Part shown: one piece after another, positions 1-60,764 of the stretch | Position numbering within the stretch: the first letter of the stretch is position 1 | How the letters are laid out: each line of letters opens with the position of its first letter | Assembly (NCBI GenBank): GCA_023957335.1 | Contig: JAMLHC010000001.1 | Location: forward strand, 266,017-330,016 | Length of the DNA: 64,000 nucleotides | Direction of reading: 5' to 3' | From: Bacteroidota bacterium | Lineage (GTDB): Bacteria > Bacteroidota > Bacteroidia > NS11-12g > UBA955 | Program-made: the position numbers and the translations under genes | Notes under the pieces: model-generated | What the model saw: the letters and a program-made list of their open reading frames with translations, nothing else | Databases searched by the model: none | What the model was told of the DNA's origin: nothing

Positions 1-516
1 TGTTCCTTCTTGCTTTTTTAGTTCCCAAATTCTCCCTCTTAATATAGCATCAGGATTGTTAAAGTTCGAGAGTGTTTGTCCCAAATGTGTTTTTAATTCA
101 GGTAGCATATAGGCAGTTTCGCCTTTCCTTATAAAAGGAGACAGTTGTGAAATCTCTCGTTTATATGTGTTCTCGTTGCTAAATACGTGTCGCATGATTA
201 TTCCGCCACTTTTGATGTTGTATTCCTCCCACCCATGTTGTAACTTCGGCAACATCTCGCACATGGCTTTGTTCATGGATTTAAACAGTTTTTCATCACT
301 AAACTTCACAGGTGTTAGCCCCATTTCCTCATTTTTTGCTTGATTCATAAAGGGCATATTGTCCGTAAAAATCTGCTTCTTTTTCAAGTAATCCCGCTCA
401 AATGCCGGCTTGGTCTTGAAGTCATTTGGTGCAACTATTGTGCTGCCTGCAGGCGGCTCAAATTCTTGGGTCAGAAAACAGCGACAGTTATAGTCAAGAG
501 GCGGGGTGTACTTCAT
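1..516 (-). CDS. Partial ORF running off the window start; N-terminus carries a phage MuF/SPP1 gp7-like core motif. Possibly a truncated head-morphogenesis or polymorphic-toxin remnant.
   Basis: Minus-strand translation from about 567 downward reads TTAALNGFTFRVDDPNRMKYTPPLDYNCRCFLTQEFEPP... This resembles the conserved ..G..F..DDP....PP...NCRC core of the Phage_Mu_F / SPP1 gp7 family, recalled from memory. An in-frame TAA lies at 568-570 directly upstream, and the first Met (516) sits inside the motif, so the domain N-terminus is missing. The ORF then continues open for about 170 aa past coordinate 1 (..MNQAKNEEMGLTPVKFSDEKLF..GGIIMRHVFSNENTYKRE..ILRGRIWELKKQEGT). It is absent from the supplied ORF track because it is edge-truncated. 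Confidence 0.35.
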   Translation of the reverse strand, partial: MKYTPPLDYNCRCFLTQEFEPPAGSTIVAPNDFKTKPAFERDYLKKKQIFTDNMPFMNQAKNEEMGLTPVKFSDEKLFKSMNKAMCEMLPKLQHGWEEYNIKSGGIIMRHVFSNENTYKREISQLSPFIRKGETAYMLPELKTHLGQTLSNFNNPDAILRGRIWELKKQEGT

Positions 517-1132
517 CCTGTTGGGGTCATCCACACGAAATGTAAATCCATTCAGAGCCGCAGTTGTTTATGATGATGTCAAAGATACGAACCTAACTCC
601 GAGACAGTGGGTTTGGGTTAGAAGCAAATATTTCCAAAATTGGTTTGGTCGTTGTCTCAAATTAAGTGAACAAGAGCAAATAAAATCATTAAATTTACAA
701 ACTTTACAAAACATATATTATGGCTACAAAAACGGAAACAGAAAATCAGAAAGACTCTCCGAAAAAGAACAACAAGGACTTGTCGAAGGCAGACAATCAC
801 TCGTTGAAGCAAGCAAAATACTTGGAGCAGATAGAGGACTTCAAGCAGGACGGAGAGTGGCTTCGGAACGTCCAATCAAAGACATACAACAAGAAACCTT
901 AGAAGAATACGCGAAAAAAAAGACGTATGGAGAATCTGTTGCAATCGTAGAGCAGAATAGAGTTAGACCCTATAAAAATAGTCCTTTAACATTTGAAGAA
1001 GTTAAAAAGGATATACAAGATAAAGGGTATGAGGCTGTAAATCAAAGCAAATCACAACCGCTTGTTTTGTGGCATAGAGTTGTTTTATTGTGTTATGCTT
1101 GCAGTATAGTATTATTGTGCCAACAAAAATGA
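506..1132 (+). CDS. Hypothetical charged, low-complexity ORF of 208 aa. Coding status doubtful.
   Basis: From the ORF track. The protein is E/K/Q/R-rich with no recognisable domain. It sits on a purine-rich stretch where a second frame (720..902) is also open. Its first about 60 nt are antisense to the MuF-like fragment and its end overlaps the start of the POT transporter. No internal Met. Confidence 0.2.
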   Translation: MYFILLGSSTRNVNPFRAAVVYDDVKDTNLTPRQWVWVRSKYFQNWFGRCLKLSEQEQIKSLNLQTLQNIYYGYKNGNRKSERLSEKEQQGLVEGRQSLVEASKILGADRGLQAGRRVASERPIKDIQQETLEEYAKKKTYGESVAIVEQNRVRPYKNSPLTFEEVKKDIQDKGYEAVNQSKSQPLVLWHRVVLLCYACSIVLLCQQK

Positions 1133-2778
1133 ATACGGAAAACAAAAAAACTTTCTTTACAACCATTAAGTCTATGAACAAAAACTTCTGGGTTGCCAGC
1201 ATGATGGAACTTATGGAGCGCTGGGCTTGGTATGGAATTTTCACCCTCTTCGGATTGTATTTGGTTGGCTCTACGGACGAAGGAGCTTTGGGTTTAAACC
1301 ACATCGAAAAAGGAAAAATAATGGGCGACATTACAGCCATTCTCTACCTTTTACCGGTGTTTTTTGGGGTAATTGCAGACAGAATCGGTTATAAACTCTC
1401 TCTTACAATTGCCTATATCATTATGATTGCAGGGTATTATCTCATGGGAGAAGTCAACACATTTTGGATGATGTATATGGCATTCCTTTTTGTGGCATTA
1501 GGAGCCGCTTTTTTCAAACCCGTTGCTTCTGCCATCGTTGCAAGAAACACTGATGATTCTACAGGAACACTCGGTTTTGGCATTTTTTATATGATGGTAA
1601 ATGTAGGCGGTTTTGTGGGACCTGTCATGTCTTCAACACTTCGCACAGAATTCGGATGGAAAATCATTTTTCTGCAAGCGGCTTGTGTCATCACACTCAA
1701 CTTGCTCATCCTTCTTCTGTTCTATAAAGAAAAGAAAGAAGTGAACGAGAAACCTAAAGAATCATTGGGTGCTGCTCTTTTAGGCTCTCTATCCAATATC
1801 ATCAGCGCACTCAAAGATGTTCGTTTGAGTCTATTGTTGCTTTTGATGGTTTGTTTTTGGACAATGTTCAACCAACTGTTTTACACACTACCCAATTTTA
1901 TTGAAGATTGGGTAGATTCAAGGGTTTTGAGCGATTGGATTAATAATAACATTCCTTTTTTAGGCACTGCAATGACACAGAATGGTTTGATAAAAGCCGA
2001 ATGGTTCACACAGATAGATTCCTTTATGATTATCTGTTTGCAAGTGATTGTATCCTATTTTGTTACCAAAATGAAGCATATTAGTGCGGTCATTCGCGGT
2101 GCGGTTATTGCCACTATTGGCGTTGGTTTAACTTTTTACACAAACAATCCCTATTACACCATTATTGGCACAGCGATTTTTGCTATCGGAGAAATGATGT
2201 CCAGCCCTACTGTCTCATCGTTTATTGCGCTTATTACACCCAAAGGCAAAGAGGGTTTGTATCAAGGAACATACTTTTTGCCGGTTGCGTTGGGAAACTA
2301 CTTTTCGGGGCTTATTGCAGGTGATTTATATCAAGCATGGTCTGACAAACTCAGTTTACTCAAAAAAGAAATGTTACACCGCGGAATTGATATGCCCGAA
2401 GTTGTATCAAACAATGAGTTTATTGAAAAGGGCGCGCATGCACTTCAAATGTCTATTACTGATTTTGAAAATAAATTTCATCTCAAGGCGCAAGATGTGG
2501 ACTGGGCAACCTCTATTCAATCTTTTAAGAACTATGCAATAAACAAAGGCATTGACATCAGCTCAGTACATACTCCTTTCTCAAAAAACGATTATTTTGC
2601 TTTGGCAGAACAAAAACTCAATATGCAACATTGGGACATGGCTGAAATGTTATGGAACAATTATAATCCAAACAAAATTTGGTGGGTAGTCGTTGGAATT
2701 GGAATCTTTTCTGTGTTAACGCTAAGCTGGTATAACAAACGCATTATTAAACGCGCAGTAAAACAAGAATCCCTCTAA
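1129..2778 (+). CDS. Proton-dependent oligopeptide transporter (POT/PTR2 family di-/tripeptide permease, MFS)
   Basis: MELMERWAWYGIFTLFGLYL matches the PTR2 signature region and FGVIADRIGYKLSL is MFS/POT motif-like. Multiple TM segments, about 550 aa. Start moved to the internal ATG at 1129 (MNTENKK..), in frame with the track ORF at 1090. Confidence 0.88.
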   Translation: MNTENKKTFFTTIKSMNKNFWVASMMELMERWAWYGIFTLFGLYLVGSTDEGALGLNHIEKGKIMGDITAILYLLPVFFGVIADRIGYKLSLTIAYIIMIAGYYLMGEVNTFWMMYMAFLFVALGAAFFKPVASAIVARNTDDSTGTLGFGIFYMMVNVGGFVGPVMSSTLRTEFGWKIIFLQAACVITLNLLILLLFYKEKKEVNEKPKESLGAALLGSLSNIISALKDVRLSLLLLLMVCFWTMFNQLFYTLPNFIEDWVDSRVLSDWINNNIPFLGTAMTQNGLIKAEWFTQIDSFMIICLQVIVSYFVTKMKHISAVIRGAVIATIGVGLTFYTNNPYYTIIGTAIFAIGEMMSSPTVSSFIALITPKGKEGLYQGTYFLPVALGNYFSGLIAGDLYQAWSDKLSLLKKEMLHRGIDMPEVVSNNEFIEKGAHALQMSITDFENKFHLKAQDVDWATSIQSFKNYAINKGIDISSVHTPFSKNDYFALAEQKLNMQHWDMAEMLWNNYNPNKIWWVVVGIGIFSVLTLSWYNKRIIKRAVKQESL

Positions 2779-4001: not shown

Positions 4002-4009
4002 TAGATTTG
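4002..4009 (+). promoter_or_regulatory. Bacteroidetes-type -7 promoter element (TAgaTTTG) upstream of gdhA
   Basis: Matches the TAnnTTTG consensus of Bacteroidetes sigma-A promoters, 27 nt upstream of the ATG at 4036. Confidence 0.3.
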
Positions 4010-13311: not shown

Positions 13312-13406
13312 TCTTTCAATCCAATGAAATTGTACTTTATAGAGAATTAACTTCACTCACTTTTTTCTTATTTATCTTTGTAATCTCAAATTTAACACAT
13401 TCCAAA

Positions 13407-26801: not shown

Positions 26802-26809
26802 TACTTTTG
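26802..26809 (+). promoter_or_regulatory. Bacteroidetes-type -7 promoter element (TActTTTG) upstream of purF
   Basis: TAnnTTTG match 18 nt upstream of the ATG at 26827. It lies in the 91-bp divergent region shared with the response-regulator gene. Confidence 0.3.
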
Positions 26810-35035: not shown

Positions 35036-35136
35036 GAAATAACTTACAGAGTCAATCGCAAGCAGCTAATACTTGAACACAATATTTTTACGACATTTAT
35101 TTATAAAGAATAACTTTGTACACACAATCCTGATAG

Positions 35137-60730: not shown

Positions 60731-60764
60731 ATAAAGATGTTAATTTTGCACCCATAAATTTTTA

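Follow-up and report, generated by a model that had tools for sequence, protein, structure and literature searches.

Organization of the locus

The DNA analysed here, a stretch of 64,000 nucleotides referred to as the window, begins inside a CRISPR-Cas locus whose cas genes lie beyond its left edge (Table 1). The contig record L001, to which the window is identical from L001 9496 onward, carries in the 10 kb to the left cas9, cas1 and cas2, followed by an array of 28 repeats, a phage-derived insert and a truncated repeat. A preliminary description of the window had taken this edge for the decayed boundary of a prophage or mobile region with its body outside the window; upstream extension reveals the cas genes and the array instead. 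Apart from the insert itself, gene calls and domain profiles of L001 yielded no phage genes over these 10 kb. All sequence sources are metagenome assemblies, including the related MAG L002 and the Logan contigs L005, L006 and L007, which come from three unrelated sequencing runs, SRR31850363, SRR26469185 and SRR26512502.

Table 1. Coordinates, strands and basis of the features at the left end of the window.
Feature	Position	Strand	Remarks
Phage-derived insert, part inside the window	1..562	-	MuF C-terminus, linker, helical region, start of nuclease domain
Start of CdiA-CT-like PD-(D/E)xK nuclease domain	1..57	-	Domain ends ~170 nt left of the window
Last ~28 residues of MuF (Phage_Mu_F / SPP1 gp7) domain, AALNGFTFRVDDPNRMKYTPPLDYNCRC	478..561	-	PF04233, TIGR01641
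Truncated terminal CRISPR repeat (R29)	563..591	-	Matches nt 1-29 of the 47-nt repeat exactly (plus-strand reading)
TAtcTTTG, putative Bacteroidota-type -7 promoter box	580..587	-	Motif search; points into the MuF/nuclease fragment
Internal piece of a polyvalent-protein gene, 449 nt	592..1040	+	Splits the terminal repeat; no start codon of its own
Last 15 nt of the same terminal repeat (plus-strand reading), AAAGCAAATCACAAC	1044..1058	-	
Chromosomal flank of the array, up to the POT start codon	1059..1128		
POT/PTR2-family transporter	1129..2778	+	Pfam PTR2 and MFS_1, ORF list; ordinary chromosomal context outside the feature

Cas9 of L001 carries HNH (HNH_4) and RuvC_III domains, Cas1 matches TIGR03639 (cas1_NMENI) at 301 bits and Cas2 matches TIGR01573. 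Two further genes at the cas locus are nucleotidyltransferase-like and Y1 transposase-like; neither csn2 nor cas4 is present, and the locus thus has the gene content of a type II-C system. The array consists of regular direct repeats of 47 nt, with a consensus derived from L001 and L002, separated by unique spacers of 29-30 nt; there are 28 repeats in L001 and 57 in L002. Rfam places the repeats on the minus strand through CRISPR-DR49, at 40.4 bits against a gathering score of 41, and the same crRNA orientation follows from the tracrRNA of the related locus L009, a textbook one upstream of cas9. A tracrRNA anti-repeat was not found in L001 between mid-cas9 and 10 kb beyond the array. In the Cas9 family of this locus the variable spacers are the cas2-proximal ones, in agreement with PMC10309648, and the insert therefore lies at the trailer end. 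Among other related loci, the contigs of L009 and L014 end before the trailer and L011 has a single degenerate repeat.

A phage-derived segment in a spacer slot

The whole insert measures 1184 bp (L001 8874-10057), of which 621 nt lie outside the window, to its left. On that side it is bounded by a full repeat (L001 8827-8873), and on the right by the truncated repeat, which starts at window position 563 (L001 10058); both insert ends adjoin repeat termini, with no shared bases. The corresponding segments of L001, L002, L005, L006 and L007 are all flanked by repeat termini on both sides, as a spacer would be, but with lengths of 1184, 1235 and 2037-2045 nt they are far from the ~30 nt set by the Cas1-Cas2 ruler. 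The insert runs from the end of a MuF gene through a linker and a CdiA-CT-like nuclease cassette and, after an intergenic stretch, into the beginning of a tape-measure gene; this last fragment lies left of the window and scores 85 bits against TMP_3.

On the minus strand, codons 567..478 translate as TTAALNGFTFRVDDPNRMKYTPPLDYNCRCFL, in agreement with the preliminary description, and its recognition of this motif as a MuF/gp7 C-terminus holds: PF04233 matches with E 2.3e-4 and TIGR01641 with E 2.6e-7. The PF04233 match is confined to profile positions 82-111 of 112 and scores 22.3 bits, under the cut-off of 29.6, because the domain is present only as its end; the N-terminal half is indeed missing. 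The stop codons reported at 568-570 (TAA) and 718-720 exist, and from the motif to coordinate 1 the frame contains no stop. The TAA, however, is neither a mutation nor a sequencing error but belongs to the exact 29-nt repeat copy R29, and what had been read further upstream in frame as Cys-rich junk comes from reading a plus-strand coding fragment in antisense. The continuation beyond coordinate 1, thought to span about 170 aa, amounts to 56 codons, with 189 codons of the ORF inside the window; the product (P0001) has 245 aa counted from the first ATG.

The product does contain a domain of toxin type, as had been suspected. Sequence and fold matches, together with a conserved D...ExK motif, identify it as a CdiA-CT-like PD-(D/E)xK nuclease domain of the 1026b / EC869 type, with putative catalytic residues D (49-51), E (22-24) and K (16-18) on the minus strand. 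No candidate immunity gene stands beside it: in all five alleles no small ORF follows directly, because the TMP_3 gene begins after ~100 nt of intergenic DNA. Jamet et al. (2017, PMC5576092), in a survey whose text does not mention Bacteroidota, list a 1026b CdiA-CT-type nuclease among the cargoes of temperate-phage MuF polymorphic toxins. As in those toxins, the donor phage gene lies directly downstream of a portal gene and joins a MuF domain to a toxin-type C-terminus in a hypervariable cassette. The copy in the window retains the variable C-terminal toxin domain but, unlike them, keeps only the last 30 MuF residues, has CRISPR repeats as its neighbours in L001 instead of a portal gene, and is not followed by a small immunity ORF. 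The earlier suggestion of a toxin-cargo module is at odds with a piece that is bounded by repeats and lacks an immunity gene, and we infer that the insert is not a working host toxin gene.

A terminal repeat split in two

In crRNA orientation R29 corresponds to the last 29 nt of the repeat, and 100 shuffles gave 0 such exact matches. The other end of the same repeat lies 70 nt before the POT transporter gene. Together the two pieces make up the whole repeat minus 3 nt (TTG), which are replaced by the 449-nt fragment, and nothing is duplicated. The -7 box is present in every repeat and has been kept in R29; motifs of the TAtcTTTG type occur elsewhere in the window 17-27 nt upstream of many start codons, and repeat-embedded promoters are known in Flavobacterium type II-C arrays (PMC10309648). 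Judging from the motif, the box in R29 may act as a promoter. Two other candidate features in this region were rejected. As for a tracrRNA in 1036-1128, the piece at 1044-1058 ends in ...CACAAC like the repeat and, unlike the tracrRNA of L009, has neither nexus nor terminator. As for a degenerate full repeat spanning 1012-1058, the match seen by eye is limited to its final 15 nt.

The purine-rich stretch at 570-1128 had been described as a region of ambiguous coding status adjacent to the phage fragment. Its composition is real (63% purine on the plus strand of 592-1040), but it represents a second, unrelated fragment, which by its similarities derives from the gene for a polyvalent protein carried by a phage or conjugative element, namely from the linker module preceding the Kinase-PolyVal domain. 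A phmmer search of 1.84 billion representatives returned P0007 (E 3.4e-6), P0008 (1.7e-5) and P0009 (4.2e-4). The latter two carry PF18762 (Kinase-PolyVal), and P0009 additionally resembles the beginning of ART-PolyVal, though below threshold (29.8 bits, cut-off 31.2); BLASTP of the 592-1040 product gave 34-35% identity over residues 1-110. As in polyvalent proteins (Iyer et al., 2017, PMC5512222), positions 593-922 encode the ...QW..R...F..WFG... / ...EEQG...EAS...YAK linker module. Unlike them, the piece is internal and, at 149 codons, comprises the linker module only, with no PolyVal/LPD effector domain; lacking both a start codon and a catalytic domain, it is therefore a pseudogene fragment. 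It is 99% identical in L002 and has no homologue in the phage loci examined here. In a second genome (L015/L016), debris of a polyvalent gene lies just past the terminal repeat of a different array.

Phage relatives and allelic variation

The phage origin of the insert, already suspected in the preliminary description, is established by its gene order, which matches that of two phage contigs (portal - MuF - TMP). In the metagenomic contig L008, the gene after portal is an intact MuF gene whose reading frame crosses the position of the insert junction without a break (...ERTRESH|AALNGFTF). Its product matches PF04233 at 57.5 bits over profile positions 7-111, and thus includes the N-terminal part of the domain; the contig is 98% identical to the array allele L005. 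The IMG/VR contig L010 presents a large ORF (530 aa, not profiled) and then a portal - MuF - TMP-like series. Further searches for close phage relatives gave little: tblastn against INPHARED yielded only matches of 27-35%, to head-morphogenesis genes of Winogradskyella and Flavobacterium phages, an IMG/VR search returned matches confined to the MuF core, and a search of GTDB representative genomes returned no match. Scans of IMG/VR for R29, alone or with the junction, found no phage contig carrying either.

This architecture is seen in six contigs, with differing insert alleles. Three are Logan contigs, and the others, of 776 kb, 115 kb and 31 kb, belong to NCBI MAGs. Five alleles (L001, L002 and the three Logan contigs) share the same MuF-side junction beside R29, whereas the tape-measure side ends at three different junctions, each exactly at a repeat boundary. 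Identity between alleles is 83-100% at the insert ends and 40-70% in the nuclease cassette, with block-like mosaic patterns. In the host flank, by contrast, L001 and L002 are 98.25% identical across the 10.5 kb that start at the truncated repeat. Next to the MuF-side junction three haplotypes can be told apart, which diverge already at nt 4-8, and most of the differing sites are synonymous. Differences so near the fixed MuF-side junction argue against simple homologous exchange, which should not rewrite bases there; independent captures, in turn, would need a deterministic cut to produce an identical junction in five alleles.

Origin of the insert

The sequences show how the locus is built, with an insert of phage origin that ends exactly at repeats, and they show that the arrangement recurs across strains and samples with mosaic insert alleles. 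Positions 1-1128 of the window are the old (trailer) end of a type II-C array, a phage piece occupying its last spacer position; this piece probably came in when the array recombined with a phage genome. Homology between a spacer and its protospacer would give exact repeat boundaries. Once in place, the insert may have kept exchanging sequence with infecting relatives via 1-2 kb of homology, and recombination with spacers gained more recently may have trimmed it on the tape-measure side; the terminal repeat would have been split later by the 449-nt polyvalent-protein piece. Transcription of the insert most likely starts from the box that R29 has retained. If so, one crRNA could be formed, with the last ~20-24 nt of the tape-measure fragment as its predicted guide.

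Most of what is known about array-phage recombination and about phages inserting into repeats comes from a small number of Gram-positive laboratory systems. Both serve as precedents: prophages integrate into CRISPR repeats, often the terminal one (bioRxiv 10.1101/2020.10.09.333658), and spacers recombine with the phages they target, homology between spacer and protospacer linking phage DNA to a type II array (Varble et al., 2019, Nat Microbiol, as cited in PMC8616872). From the latter process one would expect junctions that fall precisely between repeat and spacer, and a continuing traffic of sequence between phages and arrays. The account given there concerns transduced phage-CRISPR hybrids in laboratory staphylococci, whereas the present case is a stable kb-sized segment in place of the terminal spacer in wild Bacteroidota genomes, with no ancestral spacer observed. 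A case within Bacteroidota is Flavobacterium psychrophilum CN46, with IS256 inside its type II-C array (PMC10309648). There too a Bacteroidota type II-C array is broken by foreign DNA, and it is still transcribed from repeat-embedded promoters; the CN46 insertions, however, are complete transposons with target-site duplications and not phage gene fragments.

Besides the junction-proximal differences, further results count against array-phage recombination. L001 and L002 have no spacer in common, even at the supposedly old end. In addition, neither a protospacer nor a PAM was found: there was no usable protospacer match when two spacers were scanned against IMG/VR and all 83 were blasted against INPHARED, no array spacer matches the inserts or the phage contigs, and the three candidate PAM flanks all fit NNAYNA, an agreement that at n=3 is not significant. 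Just beyond the tape-measure-side junctions J1 and J2 the phage sequence reads CCATAA / CTATTA and ACACAA, respectively, and nt 31-36 after the MuF junction read GGAYGA.

Alternative explanations

A further possibility, which we regard as unlikely, is that the fragment embedded in the array has been domesticated and is retained by selection for a host function of its products. A truncated MuF-nuclease and a truncated tape-measure protein made from the repeat promoter could serve as dominant-negative decoys against matching phages; otherwise the kb of homology might be a recombination trap, or the module might stabilise the CRISPR locus as an addiction system. Both insert ORFs, the MuF-nuclease and the tape-measure one, are intact across the five alleles with dN/dS of 0.03-0.2, and such strong purifying selection is also expected of a domesticated, expressed module. 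In line with this notion, the PD..ExK residues are invariant among alleles, possible start codons (GTG, V12, and the Met of ...PFMNQ) are conserved, the -7 box kept in R29 is aimed into the ORF, and the place beside R29 is constant in every sample while the remaining array turns over completely. Divergence inside functional phage genes followed by recent transfer explains the selection equally well, as the near identity of L008 and L005 illustrates. Moreover, the nuclease would be toxic if made and has no immunity gene, the ATG start of the window allele is Lys in all other alleles, the tape-measure part is cut at three different places, and the regular array of 48 repeats in the related locus L013, whose Cas9 is 77% identical, lacks any long insert.

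An allied proposal of similarly low probability holds that the kb-sized terminal phage segment is no debris but is kept as part of the immune system. It would be a memory based on long homology, continually updated from local phages and transcribed from the repeat promoter. It might act via truncated MuF-nuclease and tape-measure decoys, or by forcing recombination between phage and array. If true, it would explain the fixed junction, the intact ORFs and the retention of the segment while ordinary spacers turn over.

It is likewise improbable that both fragments are what remains, after decay, of a temperate phage or other element for which a repeat had served as attB in site-specific integration. 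The model here is PhiAP1.1 of S. pyogenes, a complete inducible prophage with an integrase and an 8-bp attP/attB core (bioRxiv 10.1101/2020.10.09.333658). In that system mobile DNA likewise splits a type II repeat, in natural strains usually the terminal one, and cycles of integration and excision delete, move or reshuffle spacers; here the terminal repeat is split internally, at position 29/33, by mobile-element DNA, and the polyvalent debris in L015/L016 also lies beyond a terminal repeat. The MuF/TMP insert, by contrast, stops at repeat termini and not at a core inside the repeat. Instead of a prophage body there are only a 449-nt and a 1.2-2 kb fragment, both internal gene pieces, oppositely oriented on either side of R29; no duplicated attL/attR core, integrase or other phage genes accompany them, and no phage contig carries the repeat or the junction.

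Far less credible still is the boundary of a decayed prophage or mobile island, or a host polymorphic-toxin module, with its body to the left. The locus does hold a MuF end and a nuclease domain of toxin type, and MuF toxins are phage-borne polymorphic toxins (PMC5576092), but the cas genes and array in the upstream sequence of L001 and L002 refute this view, and the whole phage segment is only 1.2-2 kb long, is bounded by repeats and lacks the N-terminal MuF half, a portal gene and an immunity ORF. An assembly artefact in which phage reads were misjoined to CRISPR repeats is just as hard to sustain: repeats are a classic cause of chimeric joins in metagenome assemblies such as those used here, but the architecture is repeated in the MAG contigs and in the Logan contigs of separate runs, each with a different insert allele, the Logan contigs break exactly at the point where R29 and full repeats diverge, and the junctions are clean and in register. 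The segment is thus neither a prophage edge nor a host toxin module, and is most likely a product of array-phage recombination.

Relevance of the locus and consequences for annotation

The locus offers a natural case, in uncultured Bacteroidota, of a kb-long, phage-ordered segment placed exactly in a spacer slot and recurring across strains and samples. Its insert alleles mirror a polymorphic MuF-toxin cassette that circulates in the phage population. It could in this regard serve as a test site for the natural rate of array-phage exchange, for the resetting of arrays by inserts and for the effects on immunity.

At the level of annotation, the two plus-strand ORFs listed in the preliminary description (506..1132 and 720..902) both exist, but the first, annotated at NCBI as a 208-aa protein, is a read-through artefact. 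The two public 'hypothetical proteins' concerned, of 245-251 aa and 208 aa, are a gene fragment and a read-through across CRISPR repeat remnants, respectively.

Results

The minus strand of the window reads from 567 to 1 as TTAALNGFTFRVDDPNRMKYTPPLDYNCRCFL and is open as far as coordinate 1. Its first 32 residues match positions 82-111/112 of the Pfam profile Phage_Mu_F (E 2.3e-4, 22.3 bits, with the cut-off at 29.6) and also TIGR01641, SPP1 gp7 (E 2.6e-7); the MuF/gp7 motif named in the preliminary description is thus real. As also claimed there, the N-terminal half of the domain is missing, and the window copy comprises its very end only, with stops upstream in the same frame at 568-570 (TAA) and 718-720. 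The database record of the ORF (P0001), a 245-aa hypothetical protein on a 776-kb contig of a Bacteroidota MAG, extends 56 residues beyond the window edge instead of the anticipated 170 or so. Window 1-534 (minus strand) is publicly annotated as this 245-aa (or 251-aa) hypothetical protein, which is a truncated phage gene.

The continuation, in which a toxin fold had been suspected, reads as a toxin-type nuclease domain: residues 154-228 of P0001 match CdiA_C (PF18451) with 28.0 bits, over the Pfam cut-off of 26.6, and a PD-(D/E)xK signature (N-P-D...E-L-K) is unchanged across all relatives. With only four sequences as input, the AlphaFold model reaches a mean pLDDT of 60.9 (66-89 over the C-terminal domain), and Foldseek returned no significant match. 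A CdiA-CT-type nuclease toxin domain is already listed as a cargo of MuF polymorphic toxins (PMC5576092).

The region to the left was reached through P0005, the annotated product of plus-strand ORF 506..1132, on a contig of a second MAG (L001), whose positions minus 9495 give those of the window and which is identical to it over the first 9464 window bases. No phage genes were found upstream of the window in L001; in place of those expected, cas genes and a CRISPR array are encountered (see table). Consequently, of the earlier proposal of a prophage boundary or toxin-cargo module, the MuF side stands and the prophage edge does not: this DNA is a phage MuF with toxin-type cargo.

Features of the nuclease domain and of the CRISPR-Cas locus, the latter in upstream-to-array order
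Feature	Location	Strand	Remarks
Putative PD-(D/E)xK residues	window 49-51, 22-24, 16-18	minus	codons of the N-P-D...E-L-K signature
cas9	L001, first in order		HNH, RuvC_III
161-aa gene	L001 4142-4627		directly after cas9
Y1-transposase-like gene, 211 aa	L001 4682-5317		between 161-aa gene and cas1
cas1	L001, after Y1-transposase-like gene		cas1_NMENI model, 301 bits
cas2	L001, between cas1 and array
CRISPR array	L001, after cas2		28 copies of 47-nt repeat GTTGTTTATGATGATGTCAAAGATACGAATTGAAAGCAAATCACAAC, 29-30-nt spacers

The array's last full repeat ends at L001 8873, and the first 29 nt of the repeat recur without mismatch at window 563-591 (0 matches in 100 shuffles). The intervening 1184 nt (L001 8874-10057, to window 562) therefore form an insert exactly between repeat termini, in spacer position. 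The TAA at 568-570 falls within this 29-nt copy: it is present as described, but it is CRISPR repeat sequence and not a mutated stop interrupting the MuF gene. The last 15 nt of the repeat likewise recur without mismatch at window 1044-1058, and the two pieces add up to a single terminal repeat with 449 nt in place of 3 nt (TTG). The 15-nt piece was rejected as a tracrRNA, having neither nexus nor terminator and ending like the repeat; the tracrRNA of a related locus (L009), located upstream of cas9, is canonical (anti-repeat, nexus, terminator).

Both plus-strand ORFs described for the purine-rich stretch (506..1132 and 720..902) exist. A HMMER search with the 149 codons of 593-1039 retrieved, besides near-identical self copies, three distant homologues (E 3.4e-6, 1.7e-5 and 4.2e-4), two of which carry Kinase-PolyVal, one of these with a sub-threshold match to the ART-PolyVal start (29.8 bits, cut-off 31.2). 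By BLASTP, residues 1-110 are 34-35% identical to the linker module preceding the kinase domain of these polyvalent proteins, with which they share ...QW..R...F..WFG...EEQG...EAS...YAK. Given that this homology begins at the first codon past the truncated repeat, in a frame without Met, 593-1039 is an internal, plus-strand fragment of a phage or conjugative-element gene. Public annotation gives a 208-aa (or 203-aa) hypothetical protein at 506-1132 (plus strand; P0005, P0006); we discarded the 208-aa product as a read-through that starts in antisense MuF and crosses repeat, fragment and repeat end into the flank. In L015 (7436-11221) and L016 (GCA_026931135.1, GCA_026129645.1), the homologue closest to the fragment lies within a frameshifted polyvalent-protein gene of about 3 kb, which comprises LPD23, the linker, Kinase-PolyVal and the beginning of ART-PolyVal. 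This gene starts 0.7 kb past the point where an unrelated 113-repeat CRISPR array (30-nt repeat CTTTTAATCGCACCACATAGGAATTGAAAT) ends in a degenerate terminal repeat, a second example of remnants of such genes at the trailer end of an array.

Along the minus strand of the insert, the MuF end and a linker precede the nuclease domain and a stop; after roughly 100 nt containing a hairpin, a tape-measure gene starts, of which 98 codons are present before the repeat cuts it. A longer insert allele matches TMP_3 with 85 bits. The metagenomic phage contig L008 encodes a portal gene followed by an intact MuF gene (PF04233, 57.5 bits) that reads ...ERTRESH|AALNGFTF... straight across the point where the array copy starts. 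The IMG/VR phage contig L010 has the same gene order (a large ORF of 530 aa, not profiled, then portal, MuF and TMP-like), with a MuF gene devoid of the nuclease cassette. The insert is thus a contiguous piece of phage genome, and the donor gene, but not the window copy, is a MuF polymorphic toxin by definition.

A contig of a related MAG (L002) has the same truncated repeat, a 99% identical 449-nt fragment and a flank 98.25% identical over 10.5 kb, together with 57 repeats, no spacer in common with L001 and a 2043-nt insert encoding a nuclease protein of 68% identity. In three Logan contigs, each from a different run (L005, L006, L007), the 29-nt repeat piece comes first, the phage sequence sets in at the same nucleotide, and a full repeat closes the contig. 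The MuF-side junction next to the truncated repeat is common to all alleles, and the tape-measure side shows three different junctions, each exactly at a repeat boundary. Alleles are block-like mosaics, 83-100% identical in the MuF arm and tape-measure part versus 40-70% in the nuclease cassette, and both ORFs are intact in every one (dN/dS 0.03-0.2). Over 357 nt, L008 shares 98% identity with array allele L005, but its first 60 nt match L007 instead. Divergence therefore took place in functional genes, with the array copies as recent samples of, or recent exchange partners with, a mosaic phage population. The insert is missing from the related Cas9 locus L013, and is hence specific to this lineage.

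crRNAs are encoded on the minus strand, according to the Rfam match of the repeats (CRISPR-DR49, minus strand) and the L009 tracrRNA. Between L013 and L014, which encode an identical Cas9 of the same family, cas2-proximal spacers differ and one deeper spacer is shared, in agreement with reports on Flavobacterium type II-C arrays, where repeat-embedded promoters drive transcription toward the variable end (PMC10309648). The insert therefore lies at the old, trailer end. TAtcTTTG, the Bacteroidota -7 box, occurs on the crRNA strand of every repeat, including the truncated one (window 587-580), which could start a transcript into the MuF/nuclease fragment. The insert end adjoining the next full repeat might still yield a crRNA against the tape-measure gene.

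Discussion

Recombination between arrays and phages, or insertion into arrays, is already known, and this locus is a new form of such phenomena. The junctions fall exactly at repeat termini, as predicted by spacer/protospacer homology recombination according to the account of Varble 2019 in PMC8616872. A newly acquired tape-measure spacer would recombine with the insert, producing the three tape-measure-side junctions; this would remove the array in between, in line with the absence of spacers common to L001 and L002. Infecting phages may have produced the mosaic centre by double crossovers within the conserved arms.

The MuF side is more puzzling. If a single capture had been followed by homologous exchange, the bases nearest the junction should have stayed unaltered, yet three junction-proximal haplotypes diverge from each other starting at nt 4-8, largely at synonymous positions; repeated independent capture would need a deterministic cut at this junction. 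In this regard, NNAYNA, which fits nt 31-36 past the MuF junction as well as phage sequence immediately beyond two of the tape-measure junctions (n=3, not significant), could be the PAM of this Cas9; no protospacers defining a PAM were found for two spacers in IMG/VR or 83 spacers in INPHARED.

As for the split terminal repeat, a stray DNA fragment captured at a break within that repeat is at least as likely as prophage-type insertion. Prophages of S. pyogenes do insert into CRISPR repeats, usually the terminal one (bioRxiv 10.1101/2020.10.09.333658), and split it alike, but the present locus lacks a duplicated core, an integrase and a prophage. We consider it improbable that the insert is maintained and expressed as part of immunity.

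Some further features of the region deserve mention. With 109 matches in the window (expected, 84.5 +/- 9.7), TAnnTTTG is over-represented, and many start codons have it 17-27 nt upstream (e.g., 2845-2852, 4002-4009, 13373-13380, 26802-26809, 35111-35118 and 60741-60748), consistent with Bacteroidota-type promoters; none precedes the POT gene on the plus strand of 588-1128. The 161-aa gene is conserved directly 3' of cas9 within this Cas9 family (also L009 14605-15090, L013 14025-14510, L014 4934-5419), with weak nucleotidyltransferase-like matches only (AbiEii, DUF2204, aminoglycoside adenylyltransferase; E 0.004-0.03). The Y1-transposase-like gene, of the REP-associated tyrosine (Y1/IS200-like) type (NF047646, E 2e-16, 60 bits, below the cut-off of 80), is absent from L009, L013 and L014; its 84-nt palindrome (L001 4884-4967) matches plant miRNA models on both strands, a spurious assignment of a real hairpin. 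In L011 (16379-17276), a locus whose Cas9 is 82% identical, one lone degenerate repeat stands after cas2, ahead of a 188-aa minus-strand ORF that lacks annotation; the array may have collapsed. No gene is called in L001 where the window and L002 have a ribBA-like ORF. From window position ~9465 (L001 18960) onward, window and L001 stop matching position for position, probably owing to an indel or variable segment after dnaE.
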